Assembly: GCA_965207225.1 (NCBI GenBank) | Contig: CBDBLV010000005.1 | Location: 128,001 to 192,000, forward strand | Direction of reading: 5' to 3' | Length of the DNA stretch: 64,000 nt | Origin: Dehalococcoidia bacterium | Lineage (GTDB): Bacteria > Chloroflexota > Dehalococcoidia > Plut-88900 | In this document: positions 2,328 through 37,930 of the stretch, piece after piece | Position numbering within the stretch: position 1 is the stretch's first letter | Layout of the letters: every line of letters starts with the position of its first letter | Made by a program: the position numbers and the translations under genes | Notes under the pieces: model-generated | What the model was told of the DNA's origin: nothing | Database searches by the model: none | Seen by the model: the letters and a program-made list of their open reading frames with translations, nothing else

Positions 2328-2404
2328 GCGCTTGTAGCTCAGATGGATAGAGCGCGGCCCTGCGGAGGCCGAGGTCGTGGGTTCGAGCCCCGCCAAGCGC
2401 GCCA
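2328..2404 (+). tRNA. tRNA-Arg(GCG)
   Basis: Acceptor stem GCGCTTG/CAAGCGC, anticodon arm CGGCC-CTGCGGA-GGCCG, CCA end. Confidence 0.93.
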
Positions 2405-4081
2405 GACTTTTCTAATTCTCGGGAGTGGGGCGGTTAGCTCAGTTGGTGAGAGCGCTTGCCTTACAAGCAAGAGGTCACTGGTTCGAGTCCAGTACCGCCC
2501 ACCAGCGACTCCCATACTGCGAACTCCCCTGCCCAGGGCGACCTCCGCCAGGTCTGCCCCGCCTATGGGAGAGTCCTCCGGGGTAGGGATTGAGTAGTGG
2601 ATCGTCGCCCTGCCGGGCCTGACCTCGATCTCGTTGACGAAGGACCGGATGAAGGCCCGCGACTCGGTAATCTCGCTCTCCCTTAGGAACCTGCTCATGT
2701 CCAGGGCGAAGGCCGCTATGGTTTCCACCTTGTCCAGGGTCACCCTGCGCTTCGACAGCATGGCCCTGGCATCCTCGGCGGCGGCCTCCAGCTTCTCCTT
2801 GCGCTCCCGGTGCTCCTTGATGCGGTCCGTGGCGTCGGACATCTCGATCTCGGTGGTCTCGATGACCTGCCAGATGCGCCCCAGCCGCCGCTTCACCTCC
2901 TCCAGCTCCTCCTCGATGACCTTCAGCCGCTGGCGCTGCTCCCTGGCCACCCCGTCCATCTCCTCGTCCACGATCTTGACCAGTTCGGTGATGTTGGACT
3001 CGGTGAGGATGTTGTCCCGGATGTTTTCAACTATCAGGCCCTCGAACCGCTTGGCGTTGAGCCTGGGGGTGGTGCAGGTCCCGCTGCCCTTCTTGAGCAG
3101 GGAGTGGCAGACGTAGTAGGTGTACTTGCCGCCCTTGGCCTCGGCGGCGGTGAGGGCCTTCCTGCACCTCTGGCACTTGACCAGCCCGCTGAGCAGGTAG
3201 GGGCTGGAGGCCCGGCGGGGGTGGACGGCCTTGGGCGCTCGTGAGCGCAGCAGCCGTCTCACCTGGCGGTACTTGCTCTTGGAGATCAGGGCGGGGAACG
3301 CCTTCTCCACCCGCACCGGCTCCGCGCCGTCCCTGGCCTTGGTTCCCCACACCAGAACCCCCGTATAGGCTTCGTTGGTGAGCATGGTGTGGACGGCGCT
3401 CTTGAGCCACTGCTTGCCCCTGGGAGAGGGAACGCCCTCGGCGTTGAGGGTCTTGGTGATGTCCAGGGAGCTATGGCCCTTCAGCGCCATGTCGAAGACG
3501 CGCTTGACCACGGCGTCGGCGGGCGGGTCGGGCTCCAGCTTGGGGCGCTTCTTGGCCCCGTCCTGGACGTAGACCTTGCGGTAGCCGTAGGGGGCGAAGG
3601 TGGCGACCCAGAAGCCTCTCGACGCCGCCTCCCGCATTCCACGGGAGACCTCCTCTGCAAGATTGGCGCTGTAGAACTCGTCCACCGACTCGATGATGGC
3701 CTCCATGAGCTTGCCGGTGGGGGAGTCGTCGGCGTGCTCGGTGATGGAGGTGACGCGGATGCCCCTGCGTCTGAGCATGGACTTGAAGGCGACGGCGTGC
3801 TCCCGCTTGCGGGTGAATCTCGAGAATTTCCAGACCAAGATTTCCTGGAACGGGGCCTCGGGCTTGCCCGCCTCGTCCAGCATCTTCTGGAACTGGGGAC
3901 GGTCGGCGATGCGGCCACTCTCGGCTTCGTCCACGTACTCCCTTGCCACGACGTAGCCGTTCTTCTGGGCGTAGTCCCTGAGCGCCCGCATCTGGGCGGC
4001 CACGGACAGGTCCACGTCCTGGCGGTCGCTGGAGACCCTGGCGTAGAGGGCGACGGGTATCAACTCGGTTCGTTCACTCAT
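2339..4081 (-). CDS. Large serine recombinase (integrase of element A)
   Basis: YARVSS catalytic motif, SRFTR, recombinase domain, LLSGLVKCxxC..YYVC zinc ribbon, coiled coil, RBS AAGGAG before ATG 4081. The C-terminus reads antisense through tRNA-Val and tRNA-Arg. Confidence 0.95.
   Translation of the reverse strand: MSERTELIPVALYARVSSDRQDVDLSVAAQMRALRDYAQKNGYVVAREYVDEAESGRIADRPQFQKMLDEAGKPEAPFQEILVWKFSRFTRKREHAVAFKSMLRRRGIRVTSITEHADDSPTGKLMEAIIESVDEFYSANLAEEVSRGMREAASRGFWVATFAPYGYRKVYVQDGAKKRPKLEPDPPADAVVKRVFDMALKGHSSLDITKTLNAEGVPSPRGKQWLKSAVHTMLTNEAYTGVLVWGTKARDGAEPVRVEKAFPALISKSKYRQVRRLLRSRAPKAVHPRRASSPYLLSGLVKCQRCRKALTAAEAKGGKYTYYVCHSLLKKGSGTCTTPRLNAKRFEGLIVENIRDNILTESNITELVKIVDEEMDGVAREQRQRLKVIEEELEEVKRRLGRIWQVIETTEIEMSDATDRIKEHRERKEKLEAAAEDARAMLSKRRVTLDKVETIAAFALDMSRFLRESEITESRAFIRSFVNEIEVRPGRATIHYSIPTPEDSPIGGADLAEVALGRGVRSMGVAGGRYWTRTSDLLLVRQALSPTELTAPLPRIRKVWRAWRGSNPRPRPPQGRALSI
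2428..2504 (+). tRNA. tRNA-Val(TAC), integration target
   Basis: Anticodon arm CTTGC-CTTACAA-GCAAG and CCA end; its 3' end GCCCACCA is the att core. Confidence 0.96.
2497..2525. other. att junction 1 (tRNA half plus element A attP arm)
   Basis: Core GCCCACCAG 2497-2505; arm CCATACTGCGAACT (2512-2525) is the inverted repeat of AGTTCGCAGTACGG (17295-17308), 13/14 match. Confidence 0.9.
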
Positions 4082-4136
4082 TGGTTTCTCCTTGCTATCG
4101 ATCATACTATTCGGCGTCTCGAAGAGCAGAGGCTCC

Positions 4137-5231
4137 TCACCCCGCTGGACTGGCCCCCCAGCACTCCGTCAGGCCCTGTTCGGCGTCGATGGACGGCACC
4201 CCGGCGACCGGCTCCGCACTCACCAACGCCACGCCCGTATCGTGGAAGTCGAGCCCGGTTGGGGCCTGCGGCTTCTGTCCGGTCCGGACGTACTCAACCA
4301 CGGCCTCGACGCCAAGGGATGCCATGCGAACCGGATACTGCATCGCGGTGGCTCCGAGCTCACCGCTGGCGACCCTGCGCACGCCGGAACAGGCTCCGTC
4401 GATGGTGACGATCAGCACCTCGCGCTCCAGCCCCATGGAACGGAGCGCCGTGTATGCTCCCGCCGCCGCGGGTTCATTGATGGCGTACACCAGTCGGATC
4501 GACGGGTCCATGCGCATCAGGCGCTCCATCGCGCTGCGCCCGCCAGCTTCCGAGCCCATGGTCAATGCGCTGCCGGCGATGCGCGGGTCATCCTCGTCGT
4601 ACTTTCTTCCCGGGTCCTTGATATCGATGCCGAAGCCATGGAGGAAGCCCTGGTTGCGCATCACATCAACGGTGACCGGCATCTCGTAGCCGTCCAGCGT
4701 CACGATCCGCGTCCGGGCTGCCAGCGGCCCCAGCCTTTGCCGCGCCCAGAGGCCGATCAGTTCACCGGCCCGGAAGTTGTCGGTGGCGAAGGTTGCGTCA
4801 ACCGTGTCCGGCGGATCGAAGGGCGTGTCGAGGGCGATCACCAGCAGGCCCTCTGCACGCGCTTGCGCGACCGCCGGCTCTAGAGCCAGCGGGTCCGACG
4901 GGGTGATGAGGATGCCCTTCGCCCCCGCCGCGACCAGTTCTTCGATGGCCGCTATCTGCGCCTGTGCATCCCCGTCGTAGGCGCCGCTGTACGTGCGCAG
5001 CTCTACGTCAAGCTCCTCGGCGCGCTGAAGCGCCGCCTCGGCCATGGTGACGAAGAAGGGGTTGCCTTCGGTCTTGGTAATCAGTCCCACGAGCACAGGC
5101 TCGGACTCGTTGGAGCCGGATTCCTGGGCGCAACCGGCAAGAATCACGACGGCGAGGCAGAACAACACGGCGACGAGGGACGGCACCCTGGTGTACAGGG
5201 CCACTGGAGTGCAGCCATTCGTCTGACTCAT
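4137..5231 (-). CDS. Sugar ABC transporter substrate-binding lipoprotein (RbsB/FrcB-like), orphan
   Basis: Lipobox ILAGC; GLITKTEGNPFF, VIALDTP, ATDNFRAG, YAINEP and TIDG periplasmic-binding-protein motifs; no adjacent permease or ATPase. Confidence 0.88.
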   Translation of the reverse strand: MSQTNGCTPVALYTRVPSLVAVLFCLAVVILAGCAQESGSNESEPVLVGLITKTEGNPFFVTMAEAALQRAEELDVELRTYSGAYDGDAQAQIAAIEELVAAGAKGILITPSDPLALEPAVAQARAEGLLVIALDTPFDPPDTVDATFATDNFRAGELIGLWARQRLGPLAARTRIVTLDGYEMPVTVDVMRNQGFLHGFGIDIKDPGRKYDEDDPRIAGSALTMGSEAGGRSAMERLMRMDPSIRLVYAINEPAAAGAYTALRSMGLEREVLIVTIDGACSGVRRVASGELGATAMQYPVRMASLGVEAVVEYVRTGQKPQAPTGLDFHDTGVALVSAEPVAGVPSIDAEQGLTECWGASPAG

Positions 5232-5233
5232 CT

Positions 5234-5449
5234 TTATCCTTCCCTGTCCTGTCTCGTTTGGCGTGAACGCCGTCGCTGCATCCGCTCCGTGATGCGCCAC
5301 TCCCGTTCCTCCATGTAGAGGCGGATGGCCTCCCGGAGAACCTCGCTCACGGTGCGCTGTTCATCCGTCGCCACGTCCCGAAGCACCTGCGCCGTCTCGG
5401 GCGGCAGGGAGAAGGTGATGGTGTCGGTGTTCCTGGGTTTGACGGGCAT
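5234..5449 (-). CDS. CopG/ribbon-helix-helix DNA-binding protein
   Basis: TITFSLPPE..LRDVA..EQRTVSEVLREAIRLY RHH pattern. Confidence 0.8.
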   Translation of the reverse strand: MPVKPRNTDTITFSLPPETAQVLRDVATDEQRTVSEVLREAIRLYMEEREWRITERMQRRRSRQTRQDREG

Positions 5450-5663
5450 GGCTCTCTTCTTGATATGGCACTGCGTCTTACTCTCTATCATCTCGCAACC
5501 GCACTCCTTTCGTCAAGGGAGAAGTGGCGGGAATCGGTCCGGGCTACACCGCAGCGAGCAATCCGGCGGGGCCGGTTGAGGCGGTCGATACCCTTTCTGA
5601 AGCCTCCGGGAGCGCCTTCGGAGGCCGGTTTTGATGTCGTGGGGGTGTACAGGGATTTGCGTC

Positions 5664-6232
5664 AGTTGCAGAAATGCAAGTCGGGGGCACTTCCAAGCTG
5701 AAATCGAGCGAAAGGGAGGGGTGGTTGGCAAGTGAGCAAGCAATGTTTGGTCGGGGCGTGTTCCACGGATTCCGGCGGAGTTGCAGAAATGCAAGTCAGC
5801 AAGACAGCCACATGGGAGCCACGTCGCAGCAAGCGATGCCGATGCCCTCTGGGACTGCGACAATGTGATTGGTGACCGGTCACCCCGTCCAGAACATCGA
5901 AAAGGACGAGCATGAGGTTGTCGGCGATCCCGCCGGTTCTGCAACGAATTGTACTTTCGGGAGCTGTTGGAGGCTGACACGGTAAGTAGTGGGAATGGCC
6001 TTTTGTCCCCTATAGGAAGTCCTGGGAACGGCTCGGTGGGACAAGTCGCAGCATGTTGCGCAGTCTTCGGCGTCCGTGTGTGGGACGCAGTGGCCGGGCG
6101 GCTGTAGGCAGGAATCGTAGCTGAGGGATGACGGTGACGGGGGGTGTGATGCAGCGGGGAAGACGGCCTGACCGGTCGGTTCTGCAACGGATTGTACTTC
6201 TGAGGGCGGTAGCGGAGATGCGCGACCGGTCA
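5664..6232. repeat. Iteron-like repeat region (candidate origin)
   Basis: 19-bp exact direct repeat (5664-5682, 5779-5797), 23-bp direct repeat (5934-5956, 6177-6199) and TGACCGGTCA palindromes. Confidence 0.6.
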
Positions 6233-6302
6233 CGTGGGCAAGTTGTCCCAGCAAGGCTGCTGGGACAGCCCCTATTGGAAGGGTTCGGAACGGAAAAGGC
6301 GG

Positions 6303-8348
6303 TCATTGCGCAGGCTGATACGTCAGGGCCAGGGGCCTTCTGTGGAGGGAATACGGCGGGGGCAGTATCCATGCATCGCCCAGGACGCCATGCTCGGCAA
6401 GGTCCACAGTGTTCGATGTGACGATGGGCGCGTCGTCCTCTGTGTCGGCGATGTCGAGGAAGGCGGTCTCGCTGTCGGGGGACTCGAAGACGAAGAGCAC
6501 GTGGGGCAGGTGTCCCTCGTGATCCCGCTTTGCCCAGCCGCTCCGGAAGTAGCGCCGGTAGGACCTCAGGCGTTTGGGGATGCGTTTCGGCGTGGTGGCC
6601 CTCCGCTCGAACTCCAGCAGGTAGGGACGCCAATCGCCCTTGTACTCCAGGGTGAAGGAGGCGTCGGAGTGGATGGCGTAGGTGGTCTGGTCGTGGCGGT
6701 ATCCGATGCTGGAGCGGTGGGTGGGAAGCAGGTCGAACAGGTCGTGGTCCGGGGAGTTGGCGACCTCGGCGGAGAGGGCTGAAGCGAAGCCGACGACGCC
6801 GGCGTGGTGGCGCAGCTGGGCGGCCAGGGCGCGCAGGGCTGTCCCGACGTAGACGGAGGGCTTCCTGAGGGTGAGTTCTGGGCTCCAGCGGTCGAGGGTG
6901 AGGCCGACGGCGGCCCGGTCCCGTCGGGCCAGGTGTGTCAGCCCCTCGTCGGTGAGAACGAGCAGGGAGCCGTCCTCCCGCACGAGGCCGTGGTCACGGA
7001 GGGCGCGGAGCACCTGGTTGACCCGGCGCAGGGTGACGCCGCCCATGAGTCCCGCAAGCTGCTCACGGGTGCACAGGGGCCATGCCGACAGCAGGTCCAG
7101 GGCGTCCTTCCCGGCGCGGGTGAGTTGCGCCGAGAGAGATGACGTGAGTTGCTCGCCAGGCTCCGGCATGACGGCCTTCACACGGGAGGAGTAGAGGTCT
7201 TCGAGATCGGGCCTCGGGTTGTCGCGGAAGGACGAATGGGACGAGTCCAGCAGCCGATCCATCCACGCCAGGATGCTTCTCAGGGACGCGCCGGGGTCGA
7301 TAGGCACGGGCGGGTCATTGTCCCGTCCGTCTCCGCACTGTTGCCAGACGGTGCCGGTGTGGGCAAGGGCCAGAAGCTCCCCCTCCGTCGCTGCGAAGGT
7401 CCTGCGGTGCTCCGACGGGTCTCCCAGTGAGCGTATCGCCCTGCGGGTGGCCTGGTCGGCATGGGTCAGGACCAGGGTGACGAAGGGCCTCTGACGACTG
7501 GGGAGGCGCTCCATGCTCCTCAGGCGGTAGCGGAGTTTGGAGGTGGGCAGGGTCTGACCCTGGCGGATGATGCCGATGGAGCGGCCACCTGATAGCGTCA
7601 CCAGCATGTCGTAGGGGCCGCTGCGGTAGTGGTCTACCCGCACGAGCTTCTCATGCTGATCTGCGTCGGCGATCATGGCGGCGACGCGGTAAAGGACGGC
7701 CACGGCGTCCATGCGCTCGGCCAGCAGCCGGAACCACTGCTTGGACACCGGGTACTCGCTGAGGAAGTGATCCGTGCCGTGCTCGATCCGCCCTCCGGTG
7801 AGGATCCCCTGCTTCGTGGGGAAGTAGCGGCGCTGCGGGCGGGAGCCGAGAACGCTCAGGTGGTGCGGGACGGAACCCACCAGGCCCCGCTTGGCGAGGT
7901 TGCTCAGCCGGTCACGCAACGTGGAGGCGGGAACGCGCCCGAAGCGGGCCAACTCGTCCACGGTGGCCAGTGGCGCTGCGCACAGCAGCCGGAGGGCGTC
8001 CTCCAGGGCCTCGGACAGAGGACGCGTGCGCCGCTCGGCGACCGGACCGCCGTCGTCCTTCAGCCGCCTGGCCTGCGCCTGGAGTATCAGCCGCTCTTCG
8101 GCGTCCTCCAACGCCTCTGCGCTCTTGCCCACGCGCTCCAGCACCGCCCGGGGTATGGCCCGTCCCGTGTGGCCCCGGTCGAGGAAGCGCCACAGGGTGT
8201 GACGGGACACGCCGAGGGTCTCGGCCGCCTTGGGCCTGCCATGCAGCACGGCGTAGGTGCGCACGTAGTCCCGGACCGCCTCGTCGAGGTCCGCTCCGGC
8301 CTGCGCCGCGCCGTTCGATGCTTGTGTTCGTGTATCTGTGGCTACCAA
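6303..8348 (-). CDS. Replication-relaxation (Replic_Relax-like) protein with N-terminal HTH and duplicated wHTH-nuclease modules
   Basis: C-terminal HSDASF..YLLEFERRAT..KRLRSYRRY..HVLFV matches the Replic_Relax PD-(D/E)xK pattern; two wHTH segments; paralog of 25732-27429. Confidence 0.65.
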   Translation of the reverse strand: MVATDTRTQASNGAAQAGADLDEAVRDYVRTYAVLHGRPKAAETLGVSRHTLWRFLDRGHTGRAIPRAVLERVGKSAEALEDAEERLILQAQARRLKDDGGPVAERRTRPLSEALEDALRLLCAAPLATVDELARFGRVPASTLRDRLSNLAKRGLVGSVPHHLSVLGSRPQRRYFPTKQGILTGGRIEHGTDHFLSEYPVSKQWFRLLAERMDAVAVLYRVAAMIADADQHEKLVRVDHYRSGPYDMLVTLSGGRSIGIIRQGQTLPTSKLRYRLRSMERLPSRQRPFVTLVLTHADQATRRAIRSLGDPSEHRRTFAATEGELLALAHTGTVWQQCGDGRDNDPPVPIDPGASLRSILAWMDRLLDSSHSSFRDNPRPDLEDLYSSRVKAVMPEPGEQLTSSLSAQLTRAGKDALDLLSAWPLCTREQLAGLMGGVTLRRVNQVLRALRDHGLVREDGSLLVLTDEGLTHLARRDRAAVGLTLDRWSPELTLRKPSVYVGTALRALAAQLRHHAGVVGFASALSAEVANSPDHDLFDLLPTHRSSIGYRHDQTTYAIHSDASFTLEYKGDWRPYLLEFERRATTPKRIPKRLRSYRRYFRSGWAKRDHEGHLPHVLFVFESPDSETAFLDIADTEDDAPIVTSNTVDLAEHGVLGDAWILPPPYSLHRRPLALTYQPAQ

Positions 8349-8533
8349 TCCGACGCCTCAACTTCCTCATGTCCCAACATCCCATCTTGAACGGGAAACT
8401 GCTCGCATGTAATGCCTTGCAAGCCGTTGTTATGGAGCGGGATTTGTGGTAGCGGTGGGGCCGTGATCACGATGCCCTGAGCCGCCGCCAGGGTGACGCG
8501 GCATTGAGGATGCGGGGCTTGCTTGATGGCGGT

Positions 8534-8773
8534 TCATCCGCGGGACCCCTTCTCTGACGGCGGCTTCGTGGACGTCGACGCTGCCTTGGGTATCTCACCC
8601 CGCAGATGGGCGCGGACGATCATCCGGGCCAGGATGCGCAGCCCGCGCTGGAGCTGAGCTCGCTGCTCGGCGGTGTAGGGCTTCATCGGCCTGTCGATGG
8701 AGGGATCGGGAGCGTCTCCTCCGCTCCTCTTCCTTTGCCCGTTCCTTGTATCTTCCCTATTGCTGTCTCTCAT
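8534..8773 (-). CDS. Small 'GLRILAR' protein (element backbone)
   Basis: Clear homolog of 32470-32694 (MRDS...Y[T/S].E.R..L..GLRILAR); shared upstream DNA GACTGTGACCCATGAGAGACAGCA. Confidence 0.65.
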   Translation of the reverse strand: MRDSNREDTRNGQRKRSGGDAPDPSIDRPMKPYTAEQRAQLQRGLRILARMIVRAHLRGEIPKAASTSTKPPSEKGSRG

Positions 8774-9102
8774 GGGTCACAGTCGCAGCGGCGGTTCGTC
8801 GGGCCGCTGGCCTCTCGTCTACAGGTGTCCTGGGTGGCCGCCGGGCACAGACGGACCGGCTGGCGGGCTACCGCCCGGTCTTTACGTCAGTGTGGGCGAC
8901 CGGAATGGCGAGCGTTATCCCCTGGAAGGGACTACATCGGTGTAGTCCCCTGGAAGCCATTACGCCGATGTAGCCAGTGCTGGTGAGCCGCAATGAGCCT
9001 CGGGCTGAGGCTGGGGAGGCCGCGGCGTCACTGGGGTTGTCGCTCTCCCTGTCGAACTCAGCGCCAAGATGTTCACCTCCTGCGGTTTGCGTCGCCCTTG
9101 CC

Positions 9103-9432
9103 AGAGAGTGTGAACGACCGGGACGCCGAAGAAGACCTCACGCATGGTGGCGCCACGGAGGGTCTCCAATCGGGGAGCCGTTTCTTGCAGTGTTGGGGTG
9201 TACAGGAAATGGAGTTTGGTGACGAAGTGGTCGAAGTCGTGATGTCGTAGCTGAATCAGGGGTAAATCGGCCCCTATGGGCTGTAACCGGCAAGCAATCT
9301 GTTGAAAGGCCCCAGTTCGGTCTCCGATGACAAAGGAGGGCTTGAGGCGGGGGTGTCTACACCGGAGAAAATCGACGGTCCGATGACAAAAGCTGCCCAA
9401 AAATGAGCTTGAGGCGGGGGTGCATTACGCTG
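9103..9432 (-). other. Conserved non-coding backbone module, copy 1
   Basis: Colinear inverted homolog of ~31720-32050. Confidence 0.75.
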
Positions 9433-10370
9433 GGATGGACGCCGGACGGGACCGGGTGCGGTTCCCGGCGGGATGAGCCGCCCAGGCGGCTGGAGCTTCG
9501 ATGTCAGCGCCAACTCGTTTACCTCCCTGCGATTTGCCGCGAACCGTTGGATCGCAGCGCCTGCAAGAGAGTGTGAACAATGGACATGCGATTCGGAACC
9601 TCCCACGGGCAGGTGCGGAAATGCACCTGTCCGTATGCAGGTGCGAACATGCACCGCCTCCCGAGGGCTTGCGAAGCCTAGGACACCTCCCGCCGCAGGA
9701 AGGGCGAATGGACATGCGGGTCAGGATGCGCAGCGTCTCTCGCCGCTTTACGGTGTGCGCCGCCGTCGATCCATTCGAGGACGTGGCGACCCTCTTTGAT
9801 GGCTTCCTTCTATCGGCCCCTCTCATCCCGCTCCTCCGTGTCGGTCTCCGGCGGGATTGCAGACTGGCCTCGCCGCCGCTGACACCGGACTTCCGGCGTG
9901 CTTTAAGCCAGTCTGCGGGCCTGAAAGAGCGAGCGGTATCACTCGGAGGGGAGTACATCGGTGTAACGGGCGGCAGCCCGCTGATGCGTCAGCGCATGAG
10001 CGTGAGATTGGCAGAGGTGATGTCAGGGGGCAGTACAGGGAAACGAACCCGTGTACATGTTGTACATCTGGGCGGTTTTCAAAGCTGACGCGGAGCGAAT
10101 CCAACAGGTTAAGGACGACAGCGGCGAACACTTTTTGTCAGGGGCCGGTTGCGACGGGGTGGTTCATGCACCCTAGCTGAAGCTGTACATGTTGTACACA
10201 GGGAAGGTAGGGACGCCGGTACATCAGCGGTACATCTTGGGCCAAGAGGTGAGACAGACGATGGATGAGAGGCCCTATCGTCGAAGATGGAGGCGATGCC
10301 GGAGCATTGAAGCCATTTCTGTGTATGTCATATAATGCCGATAGTGCAACTCTCTTGAAGGGGGAACATC

Positions 10371-10673
10371 ATGGAAGTCAAGAAGAAGAGGCTCACGCTG
10401 GACTTGGAGGCAACGTTCCAGCGCAGACTGAAGGTGGTTGCCGCCCTGAAGGGAGTGACCATGCGCCAGTACTGCTTTACCGCTATAGACAGGGAACTGG
10501 CGCAGGACGAGGCGCTGGGCATCGCCGGTCCTGTGTCCGGTTGGTCTGACGCCGAGCGGTTCGAGGAACTCCAGAAGAAGTACTTCGGGGACAGGGTGCT
10601 CCCCGGCAACGGAGCCGACTTCATTCGGGAAGCGCGGGAGGCCAGGGATGCCCGGATGGAGGGACTAGGGTGA
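10371..10673 (+). CDS. Antitoxin (RHH-like) of PIN TA pair 1
   Basis: KRLTLDL...RRLKVVAALKGVTMRQY RHH pattern; overlaps the downstream PIN gene by 4 nt. Confidence 0.75.
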   Translation: MEVKKKRLTLDLEATFQRRLKVVAALKGVTMRQYCFTAIDRELAQDEALGIAGPVSGWSDAERFEELQKKYFGDRVLPGNGADFIREAREARDARMEGLG

Positions 10674-11113
10674 GCACATTCGTGGTCGTGGACGCCAGCC
10701 TTGCCTTCAAGTGGCTGGTACGAGAAGAGCACACCGACAAGGCTCTGGCGATGCTTCGGGCCTGGCAACACGAGGAGATTAGACCGGCCGCTCCCCACCT
10801 GCTGCCCTTCGAGGTGGCGAACGCCCTTCACAAGCGGGTGAACCGGGGCGAGTTGAGCGTCGAGGGGGCGGTTGACCTAATCGGAAACCTGCTCACCTCC
10901 CAGGTCGAGTTGCATCAGCCGTGGAATCTCCACGGAAGGGCGTTGGAGATGGCAAGCAGATATGGTCAGGCCGCCGCCTACGACGCTCACTACCTGGCGC
11001 TCGCGGAGAGTCTTGGCTGCGACTTGTGGACCGCCGACGAGAGGTTCCGTCAATCCGTCGAGGACGCCGACGGGCGCGTACATTGGATTGGAGAGTTCGT
11101 TGTCCCAGAGTAG
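10670..11113 (+). CDS. vapC: VapC/PIN-domain toxin
   Basis: VVDASLAFKW, EVANAL, YDAHYLALA and WTAD PIN motifs. Confidence 0.9.
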   Translation: MSTFVVVDASLAFKWLVREEHTDKALAMLRAWQHEEIRPAAPHLLPFEVANALHKRVNRGELSVEGAVDLIGNLLTSQVELHQPWNLHGRALEMASRYGQAAAYDAHYLALAESLGCDLWTADERFRQSVEDADGRVHWIGEFVVPE

Positions 11114-11167
11114 CCGAATGGGAGTTGCCGTCCTTCTGCCTAGTCCTTCGGTAGGGCGCAGACACAA

Positions 11168-12484: not shown

Positions 12485-12497
12485 AGGAGGTCGGATA

Positions 12498-25590: not shown

Positions 25591-25731
25591 GTCCGACCTC
25601 CTCCGTTATGCTAATGACTAGCTATAAGTCTAGGTATAGTGACTGGGAACGTCAACCCGTCCTCGGTGGTGATCATCTGTACTGCCATGTGCCGGTTACC
25701 CACCAGGGTGCTGAATCGTTACGCTCGTACT

Positions 25732-28853: not shown

Positions 28854-29648
28854 TCAATCACCTCCCTTCTTGCCGAGGATTTTGGCCACTTTGCCCAGTA
28901 GGGCGCGGTGAGGAGAGAGCCTCTCCCGGTAGCTGGTGCCCTCGATGACGATCTGGTAGCTGGTGTTGGCCAGACGGTCCAGGGCGCTGTTGCCCAGGAT
29001 GGGATCGTTGAAGAGGCCGAGCCACTCCTCGATGGCGCGGTTGGAGGTGATGACGAAGCTGGAGGCCCGATGCTTGCCGACGATGAGCTGGTAGAGGTCC
29101 GATGACTGTTGTGCGTTGAGACGGTGCAGGCCCAGGTCGTCGAGGATGAGCAGGTCGGGGGAGAGGAAGGAGCGGAAGGCTTTGTCCACCGAGTTGTCCA
29201 CCCTGGCTTGGGACATGGCTTTGAAGAAGTCGTATGCGTGGATGAAGCGGACGGAGTATCCGGCTCTGACGGCGGCGTAGCCGAGGGCCTGGGCCAGGAA
29301 GCTCTTGCCGACGCCCGCCGGTCCCATGAGCAGGACGTGCTCGTGCCTGGGGATGAAGTCCAGGGAGAAGGCGGCGTCAAGGAGGCGGCGGTCCAGGGTG
29401 ATTTCGGACGTCCAGTCGAAGTCCTCCAGGCGGCAGGTCTCCTCGAAGCCGGCCCGGTTCAGGCGGGTCTCGATGCGCCGGTTCTCCCTGCGGCTGACCT
29501 CGTCGGCTAGGATGATCTCCAGGAAGGCGGCATAGTCCAACTGGTCCCTTCGGGCCAGGGCGATGCGCTCGGGCAGGGTGTCCAGCATGCCGCTGAGCTT
29601 GAGGGTCTTGAGCAGCGGGGCCAGATCGACGTTGCGGTTGCGGGTCAT
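28854..29648 (-). CDS. istB: IS21 helper ATPase
   Basis: GPAGVGKS Walker A, LILDDLG, ITSN, ALDRL and GTSYR. Confidence 0.95.
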   Translation of the reverse strand: MTRNRNVDLAPLLKTLKLSGMLDTLPERIALARRDQLDYAAFLEIILADEVSRRENRRIETRLNRAGFEETCRLEDFDWTSEITLDRRLLDAAFSLDFIPRHEHVLLMGPAGVGKSFLAQALGYAAVRAGYSVRFIHAYDFFKAMSQARVDNSVDKAFRSFLSPDLLILDDLGLHRLNAQQSSDLYQLIVGKHRASSFVITSNRAIEEWLGLFNDPILGNSALDRLANTSYQIVIEGTSYRERLSPHRALLGKVAKILGKKGGD

Positions 29649-31225
29649 AGCGTAACTCCTTCGGTTGGGTGATGGCCGTTGACCAGGGCGAAGACGGAGC
29701 CGGGCCTGGCGAAGCGCCCCGGCGGTATGAGGTCGGCAAGGGGCGGCGCATCCTGCTGCTCCAGGGCTTCAACCAGGATGCGCTCGACGCGGTGCACGTC
29801 GATGAGGTCCACGTCCAAGGCCTTGCGGCAGGCGTCGTTCAGCCGGTCGGGGGTGTAGCGCTGGGCGAGGCGGAGCAGCTTGTGTCCCTGCCGCACCTTG
29901 GCCCAAGGCGTGGGGCCTTCGAAGAGCCGGTCGGCGAAGGCGGCCACCGCCTCTCCCAGCTCCGCCGCGCTCTGCTTGATCTTGTCGGGCCCTCGCAGGG
30001 TGTAGGCGATGAACTCCTTTGGGTAGTCGTCGGTGTCGGTGGAGCGTTTGCCCCTGGGCTGACGGGGATGGACCTTGATCAGCTTGCCCCGGTGGTAGAT
30101 GCGCACCAGCTTGCTGTCCAGCGCGATCTCCACCTGCTGCCCCGGAGGGCACAGGGCCGACGGCACCGAGTAGAGGGCGTGCTGGCAGGTCACGTGGTGG
30201 TCGCGCTGCACCTTGGCGTTGCGCCAGCGGGTAACCTCGTAGGGATCGCCGTCCCAGGGCAGCAACGTCTGGCGCTCCTCTGTGTCGAAGACCTCCACGG
30301 GCTTGCGCCTGGTGGTGCCGTGCACCCGCTGTCCGGCCACCTCACGGCACCAGTGGAGCGCTTCCTTCCGCATGTGAGGCAGGTCCCTGAAGGAGGCTCC
30401 CTTGAAGAAGCGCTCTCTCACGTACTGGACTCCCCGCTCCACCTTGGGCTTATCCCTGGGGTGGCGCACCCGGGCCGGGTCGGTGATGAAGCCCCGGCGC
30501 TGCGAGTACTCCAGGAAGCCCCTGGTCAGCCTGGGGTGCAGGGCGTCGGCCCCGGCCACCGCCGCCGGGAAGTTGTCGATGACCAGGTACTTGGGTATGC
30601 CGTCGAAGAAAGCCCAGGCCGCCTCCAGTCCGGCGACCACGTCCTCCAGCTTCTGCCCGTGGGTGGGCCAGACGAAGCTGTGCCGCGAGTAGGCCAGCAC
30701 CACGATCAGCGCCCACACCGTCCGGCGGCGTCCCGTCTCCGGGTCCTCCAGCGGCCCCAGCCGACCGAAGTCCAGCTCCGCCACCTCGCCCGGAGGACTC
30801 TCCTCCATCCGCACCGTCCGAAGACTGCGGCCTCGCCAGTTGCGGCGGGCCACGAAGCGCTGTAACGACGAATAGGGCACATCGCAGCCCCGCTCCAAGA
30901 GCAACTCCCGGATGCGGGTCAGTTGCAGCCGGTCCCCGATGAGCCACTGCTGAATCTGGTCGGCCCAGGGGGACAGCCTCTCCTCTATGGGCATCTTGGT
31001 CTGCCGCGGTCCCGCACGGCCGATGGCCGCCAGCTTGCTCAGCTGCTCCTCGCTGGGACCCGGTCCGTCCCGGGACAGCCCCAACCTCTCCGCCGAGGAG
31101 ATGTATTTGACCACCGTGTTCCGGGACAGGCCCGTCCCAGTCGCTATGTGGCGCTGGCTCTCTCCAGCCTGCCAGCGCCGGATGACTTCTTCTATCTCCA
31201 CTCTGAGTACCTCCTTGTAGGCCAT
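29645..31225 (-). CDS. istA: IS21 transposase
   Basis: N-terminal HTH, ELDFG, IDN, KPKVERGV and RVHGTT. Confidence 0.95.
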   Translation of the reverse strand: MAYKEVLRVEIEEVIRRWQAGESQRHIATGTGLSRNTVVKYISSAERLGLSRDGPGPSEEQLSKLAAIGRAGPRQTKMPIEERLSPWADQIQQWLIGDRLQLTRIRELLLERGCDVPYSSLQRFVARRNWRGRSLRTVRMEESPPGEVAELDFGRLGPLEDPETGRRRTVWALIVVLAYSRHSFVWPTHGQKLEDVVAGLEAAWAFFDGIPKYLVIDNFPAAVAGADALHPRLTRGFLEYSQRRGFITDPARVRHPRDKPKVERGVQYVRERFFKGASFRDLPHMRKEALHWCREVAGQRVHGTTRRKPVEVFDTEERQTLLPWDGDPYEVTRWRNAKVQRDHHVTCQHALYSVPSALCPPGQQVEIALDSKLVRIYHRGKLIKVHPRQPRGKRSTDTDDYPKEFIAYTLRGPDKIKQSAAELGEAVAAFADRLFEGPTPWAKVRQGHKLLRLAQRYTPDRLNDACRKALDVDLIDVHRVERILVEALEQQDAPPLADLIPPGRFARPGSVFALVNGHHPTEGVTL

Positions 31226-31719: not shown

Positions 31720-32050
31720 CGGCGTAACGCACCCCCACCTCAAGCGCGCTCTTTGGCCGCCTATGTCATCGGACCGTCGATTTTCGCCCGTGCACACACC
31801 CCCACCTCAAGCCTCTTTCTGCCATTGCCGACCGAACTCCGCCCTTTCAACAAATTGGTCACCGTTCACCTCCTGTAGAGGGGGATTTACCCCTGTTTCA
31901 GCTACGAAACCCCGACTCAGACCGCTTCGTAACCAGACTCCATTTCCTGTACACCCCCAATACTGCACGAAACGGGCCTCCGATAAGTGGGTATGGAAGG
32001 CGCCACCATGCGTGGGGTCTTTTTCGGCGTCTGATTTGTTCACACTCTCT
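31720..32050 (+). other. Conserved non-coding backbone module, copy 2
   Basis: Homolog of 9103-9432; internal CCCCCACCTCAAG direct repeat. Confidence 0.75.
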
Positions 32051-32091
32051 TCCAACTCTATTGAAGCGCTGAACCGAGAGGGGCCGGAACG

Positions 32092-32358
32092 ATGAACCCA
32101 CGGAAGGCCAACGAGCGTAGGGATCACCGAAAGCGCCCGGTGCGGGCGGTCGTCCGGCTCGACGCGGCGGCCCTCTGGAAGCGTTTGGCCCTGCTGAACC
32201 GCTCCCAGTCCTGGCTTGCCCGGGAGGTCGGGATAAGCCCTGGCTATCTCTCCATGCTGATCAACGCGGGGAGAGCCCCATCAGGTCGCATCCGGGAGCA
32301 GATGCAGAAGGCTCTCGGAGCGGACGACTTCAACGACCTTTTCGGAGTGGAGGAATAG
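32092..32358 (+). CDS. XRE-family HTH regulator
   Basis: SQSWLAREVGISPGYLSMLINAGRAPS. Confidence 0.85.
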   Translation: MNPRKANERRDHRKRPVRAVVRLDAAALWKRLALLNRSQSWLAREVGISPGYLSMLINAGRAPSGRIREQMQKALGADDFNDLFGVEE

Positions 32359-32469
32359 CGATGACGCAACCTGACGTTACGTCCGCCCTCACCGAGTCGG
32401 CGGCCCCACTCCCACACTTGTAAACAAGAGGCCAGCGGCCCGATAGAGAAGCCGCTGTGACTGTGACCC

Positions 32470-32694
32470 ATGAGAGACAGCAGCGAGAAAAGAACACGGA
32501 AGAGACCCGCAGGCCGGGAGCTTGAACGCGCCCTTGCCCACTCCATGCCGTCCTATTCTCCGGAGCACCGCAGGGCGATCCTCAAGGGGCTGCGCATCCT
32601 GGCCCGTGTCGCCATCCGCTCATACATGGAAGAGAAGGCGGAAGCATCATCCCGGTCCGAAGCTGTAGGAGGCGGCAGCGAGGAGGAGATCTGA
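32470..32694 (+). CDS. Small 'GLRILAR' protein (element backbone)
   Basis: Homolog of 8534-8773. Confidence 0.65.
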   Translation: MRDSSEKRTRKRPAGRELERALAHSMPSYSPEHRRAILKGLRILARVAIRSYMEEKAEASSRSEAVGGGSEEEI

Positions 32695-32910: not shown

Positions 32911-33714
32911 TTAGACGTCGCCGGAGCTAGCGGCTTCAGGCGATGTCGATAGCAGTTGATGGGAGGCGAAGAGTCCGGCCTGCCTCTTGCCTTTAAGCCG
33001 GTAGCTCTCGCCTCGGATGTTGAGGACGTGGCTGTGGTGCAGCAGCCGGTCCAGGATGGCCGAGGCGATGACGGTATCGCCCAGAAGCTCACCCCACTCG
33101 GCGAAGCCCTTGTTGGAGGTGAGGATGATGCTGCCCCGCTCATAGCGAGCCGACACCAGGGTGAAGAAGGCGGTGGAGGCGTCCCGGTCGTAAGGCCAGA
33201 TGCCGAACTCGTCCACGATGAGTAGCTTGGGCGACAGGTAGACCCGCATGCGCCGTTGGAGGTTGTTCTCCACCCTGGCCTTCCTCAGGTCCTCCATCAG
33301 GTCGTAGGCTCGGACGAAGTAGGCCCCCTGGCTCTTCTCGATGGCCTTGAGCGCTAGGGCCACCGCCAGATGGGTCTTGCCCACACCTGGCGGTCCCAGG
33401 AGCAGCAGGTTGGTGGCTTCGGCGACGAAGGACAGGCCGGCCAGTTCCCGCACCTGTCGCTCGTCGATGGAGGGCTGAAACGAGAAGTCGAACTGCTCCA
33501 AGGTCCGGTGGAAGGGGAGGTGAGCCAGCTTCGTCCTGGTGGACATGTACCGCTCCTTCCGGGCGGCCACTTCCACGCCGAGTAGCTCTGCCAGCATCTC
33601 GGGGTAGGTCAGTTTCTTGGTGGCCGCAGCGTCCAGGGAGTTGTCCAGGGCTTCGACGGCCTGCTTGAGGCCCAGCGTCTCCAGGTGCTGGCGAGCCTGT
33701 TCCAGCGCGATCAT
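32911..33714 (-). CDS. istB: IS21 helper ATPase
   Basis: GPPGVGKTHLA, IVDEFG, LTSN, ILDRLLHH and GESYR. Confidence 0.95.
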   Translation of the reverse strand: MIALEQARQHLETLGLKQAVEALDNSLDAAATKKLTYPEMLAELLGVEVAARKERYMSTRTKLAHLPFHRTLEQFDFSFQPSIDERQVRELAGLSFVAEATNLLLLGPPGVGKTHLAVALALKAIEKSQGAYFVRAYDLMEDLRKARVENNLQRRMRVYLSPKLLIVDEFGIWPYDRDASTAFFTLVSARYERGSIILTSNKGFAEWGELLGDTVIASAILDRLLHHSHVLNIRGESYRLKGKRQAGLFASHQLLSTSPEAASSGDV

Positions 33715-34946
33715 CGCCCACCTCCCACCGCTGCCAACTCGTACACCTCCAGGGAGCGGCGCTCCACCTGGCCCACAGGGATCTGCACCGCCACGGCTTC
33801 CTTACGAGGACGATCATCGCCGCCGGGCAGTCCGTCCCACTGGCCCGGCAGTGTGAGGCGCTGACCGGTCCGCTGGGCTTGGGGATGCACCGCCAGCCGC
33901 ACGTCGCCCGACCAGACCTCCACCGTACCGGCCCGCACACCCACCTGGACCGTCGAACCCGCCCAGCTCCAGGGCACGCCGTAGCGAGACCTCTCCCAGT
34001 GGACGTAGCCGTCCCTGGCCACCTTCCGCTCCTCCCGCATGTAGGGCGCAAGGCCCGAACGCGGCGGCAGGCTGCCCAGGTGGGCGAGCTCCTCAGCCAG
34101 CATCTCTCGGGGGACCCGGTGCGTCGTCCCATGGACTCGCCGATTGGCCACCGCATCGCACCACTCCAGGGCCTGGCGGTTCATGTCTGCGTCGTCGGTG
34201 AAGCGGACACCGGGCCACAGGTTGCCCCGGACGTACTTCACGCCGCTCTCCACCTTGCCCTTCGTCTGCGCTCGGTAGGGTCGGCACAGACGGAGGTCGA
34301 AGCCCATTCGCAGTGAGAAGTCCAGCATCCGGCTGTTCCACTCCGGCCTGCCCTCCCTGTCACGCCCCAGGACCACCACCTTGGCGTTGTCGTACAGGCA
34401 GCGGCGGGGAACACCACCGAAGTACTCGAAGGCGTTCACGTGGCACCTGATGAAGGTCGCCACGTCGGCGCGCCGGACGAACTCCACGTAGATGGTCCGA
34501 GACCAGCTCAGCACCATCACGAAGGCCCAGACCCGGTGCTTGCGCCCGTCCTCTCCGACATAGGCGAAGCTGCCCCAGTCCACCTGTGCCTGCTCGCCTG
34601 GCGCCGTCTCGAACCGCACCGTCGCACGGGGCTGACGCGGCCGACGCCGAGGCCGCACGTAGTTGGTCAGCGTCGGATAGCTGCCGTCGTAGCCCAACTC
34701 CCGGATCTCCCGCAGCAGCACCACGCAGTTGTCCACTCCCGCCGACAGCCGACCATCTATGTGACCCTTGTATGGGTCCAGCTTCGACCCCTGCTTCTCT
34801 CGCCGCTTGGCCTTGGGCACCTCGTCGGAGCGCACGTACTTGCGCACGGTGTTCCGGGAAATCCCCAACTCCCTCGATATCCCTCGGATCGAGCTTCCAT
34901 CGCCCTTCAACTCGTATAACTCTCTCACTAACCCACCTCCTATCAT
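33711..34946 (-). CDS. istA: IS21 transposase
   Basis: RFETAPGEQAQVDWG, YDN, KGKVESGV and RVHGTT. Confidence 0.95.
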   Translation of the reverse strand: MIGGGLVRELYELKGDGSSIRGISRELGISRNTVRKYVRSDEVPKAKRREKQGSKLDPYKGHIDGRLSAGVDNCVVLLREIRELGYDGSYPTLTNYVRPRRRPRQPRATVRFETAPGEQAQVDWGSFAYVGEDGRKHRVWAFVMVLSWSRTIYVEFVRRADVATFIRCHVNAFEYFGGVPRRCLYDNAKVVVLGRDREGRPEWNSRMLDFSLRMGFDLRLCRPYRAQTKGKVESGVKYVRGNLWPGVRFTDDADMNRQALEWCDAVANRRVHGTTHRVPREMLAEELAHLGSLPPRSGLAPYMREERKVARDGYVHWERSRYGVPWSWAGSTVQVGVRAGTVEVWSGDVRLAVHPQAQRTGQRLTLPGQWDGLPGGDDRPRKEAVAVQIPVGQVERRSLEVYELAAVGGGR

Positions 34947-35674: not shown

Positions 35675-35938
35675 ATGAACCAATTGACGGTAAGAGGATT
35701 CGACGACGAACTGAGCGCGGCTATGCACGGCCTCGCCAGGCGGGAGGGAATCTCCCTGAACCAAGCTGCGCTGAGGCTTCTGAGGAGGGGAGCGGGGATA
35801 ACGGATAGCAAGAGAAACCCCAACGCCATAGGGTCTGCATTGGACGACCTGTTCGGTGTGTGGAGTCAGGATGAGGCGGACAGCTTCAACCGCGCTATTG
35901 AGGTCTTCGGGACGGTGGACGAGGCAGCGTGGGCATGA
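35675..35938 (+). CDS. RHH antitoxin (FitA/VapB-like), TA pair 4
   Basis: QLTVRGFDDEL...AR.EGISLNQAAL.LL; ATGA overlap with vapC. Confidence 0.85.
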   Translation: MNQLTVRGFDDELSAAMHGLARREGISLNQAALRLLRRGAGITDSKRNPNAIGSALDDLFGVWSQDEADSFNRAIEVFGTVDEAAWA

Positions 35939-36333
35939 GGATTCTGCTGGACTCGAACGCCTACTCCGCGTTCATGCGGGGCAACGAGGAAGTGAGAGCC
36001 CTCATACAGGACGCTGAGGAAGTGCTGTTCTCCGCTATTGTTGTAGGCGAGCAGCTTTTCGGATTCCGGCAAGGGGCGTACTACGAGCGGAACCTTGCGC
36101 AGCTTCGATCCTTCCTCGAACGTCCTTACGTGTCCTTCGTTCCCGTGGGTCCGGTGACCGCCGACCGTTACTCACGTGTGATGACCGCATTGAAGGCTAA
36201 GGGGCGGCCCATTCCCACAAACGACGTCTGGATTGCGGCCCACGCGATGGAAACGGGCGCCGACCTGGTATCGGCGGATCGCCACTTCGAGCACGTTGAC
36301 GGGATAGTGTGGACACCGATAACAACCAACTGA
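35935..36333 (+). CDS. vapC: VapC/PIN-domain toxin
   Basis: LLDSNAYS, GRPIPTNDVWIAA and SADRHF motifs. Confidence 0.92.
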   Translation: MRILLDSNAYSAFMRGNEEVRALIQDAEEVLFSAIVVGEQLFGFRQGAYYERNLAQLRSFLERPYVSFVPVGPVTADRYSRVMTALKAKGRPIPTNDVWIAAHAMETGADLVSADRHFEHVDGIVWTPITTN

Positions 36334-36349
36334 AACCAAGGAGGACGAC

Positions 36350-37930
36350 ATGAAGAAGAAGCACCTACAGCCGCTAACGCCGGCGGCTTTATATGCCAGG
36401 GTGTCCAGCGACCGCCAGGACGTGGACCTGTCCGTGGCAGCCCAGCTCAGGGCGCTCAAGGAGTACGCAGAGGCCAACGGCTACTCCGTGGCCCGCGAGT
36501 ACATCGACGAGGCGGAGAGCGGCCGCATCGCAGACCGCCCCCAGTTCAAGATGATGATCGAGGAGGGCAGCAAGCCCAAGGCCCCCTTCCAGGTCATTCT
36601 CGTATGGAAGTTTTCGAGGTTCACAAGGAAGCGGGAGCACGCCGTCGTCTTCAAGTCCCAGCTGCGGCGCAAGGGCATCCGCGTGGTGTCCATCACCGAG
36701 CAGGCCGAGGACAACGCCACCGGCAGGCTGCTTGAGGGCATCATCGAGACCGTGGATGAATTTTACAGCGAGAATCTGGCGACGGAAGTTGTCCGGGGCA
36801 TGCGGGAGGCCGCGTCACGGGGCTTCTTCCTGGGTTCGAAGGCCCCCTTCGGCTACCGGAAGATCAAGGTGCAGGACGGGGTGAAGGAGCGCCCCTCGCT
36901 GGAGGTGGACCCGGCCACCGCTCCTGTAGTGAAGGAGATATTCGAGAAGTCCCTGGGCGGCCACGGCCTCAAGGAGCTGTGCAAGGAGCTGAACGAGCGG
37001 GGCGTCACCAACCGGGGCAAGCGCTGGTACAAGGGCGGACTCCACTACGTGCTGAGGAACGAGGTGTACACCGGCACGGCAGTGTGGGGACTCAAGGGCA
37101 AGAACGAGAAGTCCCAGGACCCTGTGCGGGTGGAGGGAGCGTGGCCCGCGCTGGTGTCGCGGGAGTTGTTCGACGAGGTGCAGCAGGCGATGAGCGAGCG
37201 TGCTCCGAAGGTGCAGAGGCCCGCGAGAGTGGGAAGCCAGTATCTGCTGAGCGGGCTGCTCAAGTGCGGGGTGTGCGGCAGGCCCTACTCGGCCCAGGGA
37301 GCCAAGAGCGGCCAGTTCGCCTACTACATCTGCGGCACCCTGTTCAGGGAGGGCGCGGGGACGTGCAGCGCCGGTTATCTGAACGCCCAGAAGCTGGAGA
37401 CCTTCGTGGTTGAGAAGATACGGGAGCGTATCCTCAACGAGGAGACCATCGTGGCGCTGGTGCAGCTGGTGGCGGAGGAGATCGACGCCATGGCCGGAGA
37501 GCTTGCCGATAGGCTGGATGTCGTCGAGGCGGAGCTAGAGGACGTGAGGAAGCGCCTTGGGAAGCTCTACGAGGCCATCGAGACCAGTGAGTTGACCCTT
37601 GAGGTCCTGTCGCCCCGCATCATGTCCCTGAGGCACCGCGAGGAGCAGCTGGAGGCTGCGCGGGAGGACGCCGAGACCCGGCTGGAGCAGCGCAGGGTTG
37701 CCCTTCCCGACACCGAGGAGATCGTGGAGTACGTGGCGGACTTCCGAGACTTCCTGAAGGACGGGACGATACCGGAGAAGAAGGCGCTCATCCGCAACTT
37801 TGTGGAGGGCATCGAGGTGGTGGGAGACGAGGCGACGCTGACGTACACGGTCCCCATGCCGAGCGACGGCGTGACCAGCGAATCGGCCTCGGTTCTTGAT
37901 TTCGTCAAGTCCAGCCCACCAGGGGGATAG
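36350..37930 (+). CDS. Large serine recombinase (integrase of element B)
   Basis: YARVSSDRQDVDLS (close paralog of 2339-4081), zinc ribbon, coiled coil; ends two codons past the att core. Confidence 0.95.
   Translation: MKKKHLQPLTPAALYARVSSDRQDVDLSVAAQLRALKEYAEANGYSVAREYIDEAESGRIADRPQFKMMIEEGSKPKAPFQVILVWKFSRFTRKREHAVVFKSQLRRKGIRVVSITEQAEDNATGRLLEGIIETVDEFYSENLATEVVRGMREAASRGFFLGSKAPFGYRKIKVQDGVKERPSLEVDPATAPVVKEIFEKSLGGHGLKELCKELNERGVTNRGKRWYKGGLHYVLRNEVYTGTAVWGLKGKNEKSQDPVRVEGAWPALVSRELFDEVQQAMSERAPKVQRPARVGSQYLLSGLLKCGVCGRPYSAQGAKSGQFAYYICGTLFREGAGTCSAGYLNAQKLETFVVEKIRERILNEETIVALVQLVAEEIDAMAGELADRLDVVEAELEDVRKRLGKLYEAIETSELTLEVLSPRIMSLRHREEQLEAAREDAETRLEQRRVALPDTEEIVEYVADFRDFLKDGTIPEKKALIRNFVEGIEVVGDEATLTYTVPMPSDGVTSESASVLDFVKSSPPGG
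37891..37922. other. att junction 3 (element B attP arm plus core)
   Basis: GGTTCTTGATTTCGTCAAGTC-CA-GCCCACCAG. Confidence 0.9.

Follow-up and report, generated by a model that had tools for sequence, protein, structure and literature searches.

Two tandem islands of a Dehalococcoidia bacterium whose serine integrase genes appear to be split by their own attachment sites

The 3' end of a tRNA-Val(tac) gene of a Dehalococcoidia bacterium carries two integrative islands in tandem, herein referred to as islands A and B, each inserted by its own large serine integrase. Both islands lie in the analyzed 64,000-nucleotide stretch (assembly GCA_965207225.1, contig CBDBLV010000005.1, positions 128,001 to 192,000), referred to as the window, whose own positions are used throughout. 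The best overall explanation of this locus, which we consider probable, is that each integrase gene (int) is split by its own attachment site (attP), that a complete int open reading frame (ORF) exists only at attP-type junctions, and that the short C-terminal tail displaced to the other end of the island is constrained as protein.

Island architecture and split integrase genes

The tRNA-Val(tac) gene was predicted by ARAGORN on the plus strand (2428-2504), and its 3' end forms the left half of the attachment site. It is followed by island A (2500-17320, 14.8 kb), with the gene for IntA at the left edge on the minus strand, and by island B (17321-37916, 20.6 kb), with the gene for IntB at the right edge on the plus strand. 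Three copies of the 9-bp core repeat GCCCACCAG mark the junctions between the tRNA and island A (2497-2505), between the two islands (17318-17326), and between island B and the right flank (37914-37922). As integrated, IntA (2339-4105, minus strand, 588 amino acids) has its last 52 residues encoded antisense through tRNA-Val(tac) and into tRNA-Arg(gcg) (2328-2404), inside which its stop is located. Integrated IntB (36350-37930, plus strand, 526 amino acids) ends with ...SSPP-GG and a stop two codons beyond the core. Thus, neither ORF has its stop within its own island. Both proteins contain the Resolvase, Recombinase, and Zn_ribbon_recom domains (Pfam: PF00239, PF07508, and PF13408; E-values 1e-12 to 1e-32) as well as the N-terminal motif ..YARVSSDRQ.., and they are 55% identical over 500 residues.

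When the ends of each island are joined, a 52-bp site is obtained. For island A, the integrase-side arm (2500-2525, plus strand) meets the far arm (17295-17320), and positions 17295-17308 match the reverse complement of 2512-2525 in 13 of 14 letters. For island B, the respective arms are 37891-37916 and 17321-17346, and 37891-37911 match the reverse complement of 17326-17346 in 19 of 21 letters. The binomial probability of such symmetry arising by chance is 1.6e-7 for A and 4.4e-10 for B, and the best match over the outer 21 positions in 200,000 random joins of window positions was 16. In a third class of elements, A', the joined arms match in 16 of 17 positions, as read by eye. The joined sites are therefore about 50 bp long, with imperfect inverted arms centred on CC, the form expected for the attP of a serine integrase. 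The coordinates, the arm symmetry, and the location of attP inside the int ORF had already been described in a first-pass annotation made from the letters alone; all of these were reproduced on recomputation, together with the reconstructed tails. The crossover is placed by symmetry between positions 71 and 72 of tRNA-Val(tac), that is, between GCC and CACCA; the sequence itself places the cut no more exactly than within the 7-9 bp common to attP and the tRNA.

The joined islands keep the integrase frame up to stops at 17271-17273 (island A, minus strand) and 17374-17376 (island B), and the reconstructed circle forms of IntA and IntB are 551 and 540 amino acids long, respectively. In both islands, attP (about 52 bp) falls within the last 35 or so codons of int, and integration detaches the stop and the 16 codons before it, of which 8 lie in the far attP arm and 7-9 beyond it. 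The displaced 3' end of intA (17271-17320, minus strand) consists of 2 nucleotides, 8 arm codons, 7 tail codons (FRWEVRL), and TGA, while that of intB (17321-17376, plus strand) consists of 2 nucleotides, 8 arm codons, 9 tail codons (FSLRLRLAL), and TAG. Because attP lies inside int and recombination occurs at the central CC of the core, the gene is cut, leaving its body at one end of the island and the tail with the stop at the other. A complete int ORF would accordingly be present only on DNA with an intact attP-type junction, being either the excised circle or a place where a neighbour of the same orientation supplies the far arm. The integrated gene, being without its own stop and read into an antisense tRNA or a convergent integrase gene, would probably have a lowered output. 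In addition to the two displaced ends, a relic of an A' far arm and tail was found 78 bp inside the right end of island A (17190-17242, minus strand); it reads ..LTIGRTIFEL followed by a premature stop.

Two other accounts of the locus were rejected. A single composite A+B element does not fit, as the pairing is between the two arms of each island and not between arms of neighbouring islands. An assembly artefact does not fit either, as the same architecture was found in 80 loci from about 50 metagenome-assembled genomes assigned to Dehalococcoidia, SAR202, or Chloroflexi, many of which are complete chromosomes.

Evidence for mobility independent of island B was found for island A. In a genome of the same genus (L092), an identical tRNA-Val(tac) end is joined straight to a B far arm with no A element between them. 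In a sequencing run from another study (X1), the left end of island B (17320-19485) is present at an identity of at least 99%, and the depth over the cargo of island A (10.2-17.2 kb) is zero. Two further runs have a depth over the A cargo of 11-13 vs. 30-37 over the B left end (X4) and of 35-50 vs. 100-150 (X6), a ratio of about one third, and unitigs start exactly at 17320/17321. Taken together, these data indicate that island A is polymorphic relative to island B, either through late insertion or through excision. The runs holding the stretch are sponge metagenomes, and the host is a sponge-symbiont genome.

The displaced 3' end in the islands and in their relatives

In total, 12 far ends of the B type were found in the source genome. 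All of them differ in sequence beyond the arm and all of them stop at codon 10 (TAG in 7 and TAA in 5), with tails that read F-x-[LI]-x-[LFI]-x-L-[DEA]-[LV]. Mean pairwise identity among these 12 ends is 0.61 in the tail vs. 0.27 in the 30 nucleotides past the stop, where similarity falls to the level of unrelated DNA. Together with 13 far ends from four related genomes, the set grows to 25 distinct B-type ends from five genomes. The stop is at codon 10 in 22 of the 25 and at codons 3, 9, and 11 in the other three, and the two other reading frames have no comparable stop peak. Among 22 B tails, the second position of codons 1, 3, 5, 7, and 9 is T in 22, 22, 22, 21, and 21, respectively, and the even codons vary freely. 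Leucines in these tails are spelled CTG, TTG, TTA, and CTT. Related far ends are non-independent samples, yet divergence among the 25 tails far exceeds that among the integrases.

Tails of the other classes follow the same plan. The A tails (five distinct among six copies) read FRWE[VI]x[LI], with the stop present in 4 of 5, and the A' tails read [IV]FE[LM][WR][LM]G..L followed by a stop. All three classes end in an alternating hydrophobic pattern with a terminal L, V, or I. The fixed stop, the alternating T at codon position 2, and the synonymous leucine codons argue that the tail is coding rather than a signal at the DNA level, and on these comparisons of sequence the displaced tail is very likely a selected part of the protein. 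Codon-level conservation past the arm, which the first-pass annotation had put forward as one check of its proposal, is present well beyond what the arm DNA itself requires. The motif RTFx[W/L]xxRL, which the same annotation regarded as shared by the tails, was retained only in part: R-T is present, and F follows it in the A and B tails, but F is displaced by one residue in A' and the xxRL part is not conserved within families. The annotation's reservation concerning R-T stands, as these codons are encoded by the GAAC of the attP arm; the residues after R-T are not constrained in this way.

Relatives were collected as the best 120 database matches (84-94% identical), of which the one with a source name is labelled Dehalococcoidia. 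A scan of IMG/VR with IntB returned no relative. The homologs keep the ..VLDF[VI]x.. integrase-side arm and diverge past S-[SG]-P-P. In 34 of these 120, the reading frame goes antisense into a convergent integrase gene; 20 run into an attB-type half-site, 4 end at the core, 20 have other endings, and 3 lack the motif. Tails are read in place in 39 homologs, including 12 A'-type tails with the stop kept, 21 A'-type tails read past the usual stop, and 6 B-type tails. The 21 tails read past the stop sit on arms with neither GAAC nor a stop and look like decay. The first-pass claim that the conserved tail is confined to the excised element is therefore true of islands A and B, but in the wider family these 39 of 120 closest homologs, as well as 3-4 of 33 copies in the source genome, read a tail-like far end of a neighbour in place. 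Among 78 diverse full-length representatives (30-55% identity), many C-termini resemble translated antisense tRNA, e.g., ..WTRTNNPAINSRMLHH, which indicates that the running of int into a tRNA gene is a property of a wide family.

Core polarity, tRNA targets, arrays, and island cargo

In the sense of int, the codon spanning the attP centre is placed alike in the A and B families, its first base preceding the centre and its other two following it, and both families have GTTC at -25 to -22 and GAAC at +22 to +25 of attP. The two kinds of attP differ in the central 10 bp or so, which is ..GCCCACCA.. (encoding S-P-P) in B and the complement (encoding G-G-P) in A and A'. In serine integrases, only the central dinucleotide sets polarity. 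The flip of the central core thus accounts for A-type integrases abutting the tRNA and B-type integrases being located at the far end of their islands.

In six occupied tRNAs, the T-loop GTTC is located at -19 to -16 from the crossover placed above, and GAAC is located at +16 to +19 in B-type right flanks of other genomes (17 picked loci, e.g., L061). The zinc-ribbon motif of serine integrases lies 5 bp nearer the centre on attB than on attP (Rutherford, 2013), and the shift of GTTC/GAAC, which is 6 bp with the crossover placed as above, may reflect this rule of the zinc-ribbon domain binding closer to the centre on attB. The family appears to read the universal T-loop and the acceptor end of tRNA genes. 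Should this hold, the elements would represent a large serine-integrase family that targets tRNA genes by way of the universal T-loop.

The core alone does not define the target, as tRNA-Val(cac) (2086-2162), which is located 340 bp upstream and ends with ..GCCCACCA, is unoccupied. Several other tRNAs ending with ..CCACCA are likewise unoccupied in the source genome. An inverted T-loop-like motif, GA[CT]TCGAAC, is seen at about +12 to +19 in B-type right flanks elsewhere (L061, L051, L041, L074, and L038), where the other strand resembles a tRNA 3' end; in L074 and L038, it is located 25-33 nucleotides past the tail stop of another element. ARAGORN predicted no tRNA in any of 80 related loci up to 150 bp from the junction on the integrase side, so these T-loop-like right flanks are not intact tRNA genes. 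The motif may be a landing pad or a relic. No such inverted motif was found downstream of the unoccupied tRNAs of the source genome.

The family is multiplied in the source genome. Using tblastn, 41 matches to IntB were found in the 4.03-Mb assembly, including 13 of the B type (84-100%), 15 at 55-57% (A and A'), 5 at 46-52%, 4 fragments, and 4 distant ones (26-28%); Resolvase-domain matches number 38 genome-wide. In total, 33 copies are full or near-full, and none of these has an internal stop. Of the 20 non-B copies, 7 are located 51-66 bp from a tRNA 3' end and read antisense into the tRNA (Ile, Ala-tgc, Lys-ctt, Val-tac, Gln-ttg, Val-gac, and Met), and 7 further ones are convergent with a B-type integrase at a distance of 33-66 bp. 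The multiplication of one family to 33 copies in a single 4-Mb sponge-symbiont genome is also of practical interest.

The copies form tandem arrays of the order tRNA, A-type, B-type, A'-type, B-type, etc., such as the one on contig C5 (1,912,002-2,043,313, outside the window), and by a rough sum of their spans the arrays cover about 570 kb. The types mostly alternate, A-type with B-type. Each array junction consists of a "left half" (a tRNA end, an A far arm, or a B integrase-side arm) and a "right half" (an A integrase-side arm, a B far arm, or the flank), which is the pattern predicted for conservative recombination at one shared, polar core.

On the minus strand of island A, a gene for a periplasmic-binding protein of the Peripla_BP_4 family (4137-5300) is located between intA and the rest of the island. 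In three runs, contigs pass over the part from about 4093 to 5260, with 9-24 different letters in its place, which indicates that related copies lack this insert. Island A also encodes a Replic_Relax-like protein (6303-8348, minus strand), a PIN protein (10670-11113), and a plus-strand group of genes for a C5 cytosine methylase and HATPase_c_3, Z1, and DUF4420 (PD-(D/E)XK-like) proteins (11168-17195). This last group looks like a methylation-linked defence cassette, and the guanine-plus-cytosine content falls to 0.53-0.57 across 11-17 kb. In island B, genes were found for an Exo_endo_phos nuclease and a TPR + HEPN_LA2681 protein (17482-19836, plus strand), a DDE transposase (21624-22760), an N6_Mtase-like protein of 736 amino acids (22810-25020, minus strand), a Replic_Relax-like protein (25639-27429), two rve/Mu-transposase-C proteins (29645-31225 and 33711-34946), and a FitA-like/PIN pair (35675-36333). 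The three transposase genes indicate that island B was itself invaded by insertion sequences. Stretches of low guanine-plus-cytosine content (0.47-0.51) are also seen to the right of island B (38000-45000).

Tail function, alternative explanations, and known systems

The structure of a 93%-identical homolog of IntB was modelled by AlphaFold2 with an alignment of 104 diverse sequences; the mean predicted local distance difference test score (pLDDT) was 85.4, and an alignment of 41 near-identical sequences gave a mean of 40.2. Helices 364-412 and 417-448 between the zinc-ribbon strands (pLDDT about 80-94) form the long coiled-coil of serine integrases. Recognised domains end near residue 500, and residues 506-540, which comprise the whole attP-encoded stretch and the tail, score below 50. 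The unplaced residues 506-540 of this model would fit a flexible terminal motif. Degradation tags and docking motifs usually take such a form, with a short, conserved, and hydrophobic terminus carried by a flexible linker.

Any specific form of the idea is tentative, but the tail may be a short motif at the end of a flexible linker that changes how stable the circle-encoded integrase is or which partners it binds. In that case, the C-terminus of the integrase would signal the state of the element, free or integrated. If the tail does change the action of the integrase, the switch would be written in the connectivity of the DNA and not in a regulator, and the enzyme would differ on a circle, in an array, and alone in the chromosome. 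This would bear on the directionality of serine integrases, for which separate directionality factors have so far been the only answer. A narrower proposal, which we regard as doubtful, is that the tail is a docking or degradation signal attached only by the free element, so that DNA topology would set the stability of the integrase or its coupling to a host factor and would partly replace a directionality factor. In one version, the tail would be a weak motif resembling a clamp-binding one, tying reintegration to replicating DNA. Clamp-binding motifs with the consensus Q-L-x-L-F are described at the C-termini of transposases, often in unstructured ends (PMC4549789). A predicted complex of the source genome's DnaN (L116) with the last 44 residues of a natural ORF composed of integrase plus B tail (L094) scored 0.02, without controls, and weighs neither for nor against clamp binding.

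Several observations weigh against the explanation favoured here. In 33 of the 39 homologs with in-place tails, the tail is of a different arm class from the integrase. The tail is therefore not strictly circle-specific, given the 39 of 120 that read a neighbour's tail, and not strictly cognate-specific. The 33 integrated copies of the source genome keep intact ORFs despite having many different C-terminal endings, which suggests that the integrase body may work without the tail. In the AlphaFold2 monomer model, the tail docks on nothing. No joint of 17320 to 2500, which would mark the circle of island A, was found among the joints listed for Logan contigs over positions 2000-19500 of the window, although rare forms do not show in contigs and the result does not speak for absence. 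In none of the 11 other genomes of the family was the right flank (37923-38700) found, so these give no unoccupied tRNA-Val/flank junction for comparison; the absence of these first 778 bp from the 11 genomes suggests that another island may follow B in the array. The shift of the motif from attP to attB is 6 bp here vs. the published 5 bp, a value that varies with the point chosen for the crossover inside the 7-9 identical bp. Finally, a blastp comparison between the ORFs of the two islands gave no recombination directionality factor. In addition to the integrase and the Replic_Relax-like protein, the islands have in common only short matches between small ORFs. Such ORFs within 8534-9293 (8534-8773 and 9138-9293) and 31763-32694 (31763-32095 and 32470-32694) are 37-73% identical over 33-57 residues, belong to no Pfam family, and have an HTH_3 neighbour. 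By their conservation, these small ORFs are candidate regulators or directionality factors.

The varied endings and the unplaced residues 506-540, with recognised domains ending before them, are what would be expected if the overlap were a neutral by-product in a compact element whose attP sits at the 3' edge of int, with a dispensable tail and two enzyme forms that behave alike. This reading also draws on dsiB, which upstream of the repeat already has the expected length (McMurdie et al., 2011, PMC3146451). We nevertheless consider it improbable, as it leaves unexplained why 22 of 25 diverged ends stop at the same codon and keep T at the second position of odd codons while the flanking DNA is unalignable, and why three tail classes share the hydrophobic alternation and terminal residue. 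A signal in DNA or RNA, such as an extended integrase-binding site or a terminator, could also conserve the 27-30 nucleotides past the arm. The stretch does adjoin the attP arm, and the R-T codons are demonstrably constrained by that arm. However, nucleotide identity within the tail is limited to 0.61, codon position 2 has a 6-nucleotide periodicity, leucine codons are exchanged synonymously, and TAG and TAA alternate at the fixed stop, so that this explanation is highly improbable.

Selection could instead come from the chromosome, where an array neighbour supplies the 3' fragment at a junction, which is the second alternative of McMurdie and coauthors (PMC3146451). The 39 homologs reading a tail-like far end in place are in line with this, as are the arrays with shared junctions and the 3-4 in-place ORFs of the source genome. 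On the other hand, the arm class matches that of the integrase in only 6 of the 39, the 21 tails on arms without GAAC and stop look like decay, and most junctions in the source genome are convergent integrase pairs (7) or tRNA ends (7), at which no tail is read. It is thus improbable that the tail matters mainly in the chromosome. The explanation retained here is that of tandem islands with int genes split by attP and a tail constrained as protein.

Genes split by an internal attachment site are known from several systems. In the SPbeta-like Bacillus phage Goe14, attP is located within the stretch that encodes the C-terminus of a large serine integrase, and its authors speculate on integration by the long form and excision by the short one (bioRxiv 10.1101/2021.11.22.469490). 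Goe14 differs from the islands described here, as its integrase loses 131 amino acids that reappear as a 97-residue ORF, and it is a phage that targets a protein gene, spoVK (bioRxiv 10.1101/2021.11.22.469490), whereas here only 16 residues are moved, the target is a tRNA gene, and the islands are non-phage ones, having no IMG/VR match. In the myxophage Mx8 (IntP/IntX), attP is also inside int, and the new 3' end gives the integrase altered properties without inactivating it (PMC6070905); SSV-type integrases are also named as attP-inside-int cases (PMC4383910). Both differ from the integrases studied here in being tyrosine recombinases of unrelated fold and chemistry. Mx8 is also said to exchange a much longer C-terminal segment. 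In the mycobacteriophage BPs, attP is inside the repressor ORF, and the form encoded on the circle carries a C-terminal degradation tag that integration removes (PMC3694055). By analogy with BPs, a degradation role might be considered for the integrase tail, although in BPs the split gene is that of the repressor and the integrase is a tyrosine enzyme (PMC3694055).

The closest known system is DsiB of Dehalococcoides, a large serine recombinase of about 540 amino acids at the island edge with a stop only outside the island (McMurdie et al., 2011, PMC3146451). In line with the first-pass annotation, by which DsiB-type integrase genes overlap their att site, the 3' end of dsiB always overlaps attL (McMurdie et al., 2011, PMC3146451). 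The gene was proposed to be complete only on the circle or beside an island supplying the 3' fragment (PMC3146451), and a vcrA island was seen as a circle (Molenda, 2019, PMC6299113, as reported in a citing passage). Both the splitting of a serine integrase gene by its own attP and the proposal of a working enzyme made only from the circle are already in print for DsiB (2011) and Goe14 (2021). The islands analyzed here share with those of DsiB the bacterial class, the length of the integrase (540 amino acids), the overlap of the int edge with attL, the stop outside the island, and the tandem arrays at the 3' end of an RNA gene (PMC3146451). Unlike DsiB, the present family targets at least seven different tRNA genes and not ssrA, with no tmRNA (transfer-messenger RNA) listed in the assembly by the tmRNA option of ARAGORN. 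Additionally, no DsiA-like small serine recombinase is present, as the only two Resolvase matches in the window are the integrases.

The Islander paper (2014) states that serine recombinases are not known to target tRNA genes, and no serine-integrase family doing so was found in our literature search, although later work may have changed that. The search likewise returned no earlier report of a core flip between sister serine-integrase families and no earlier evidence that the displaced piece is conserved as protein, although Additional file 7 of McMurdie et al. may show reconstructed C-termini. Since its publication in 2011, the idea of the split gene has stood without evidence of a role for the lost piece, and the fixed stop and alternating hydrophobic pattern across 25 diverged ends make it directly testable. 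In contrast to the available passages of McMurdie et al. (2011), the displaced fragment is identified here and found to be constrained.

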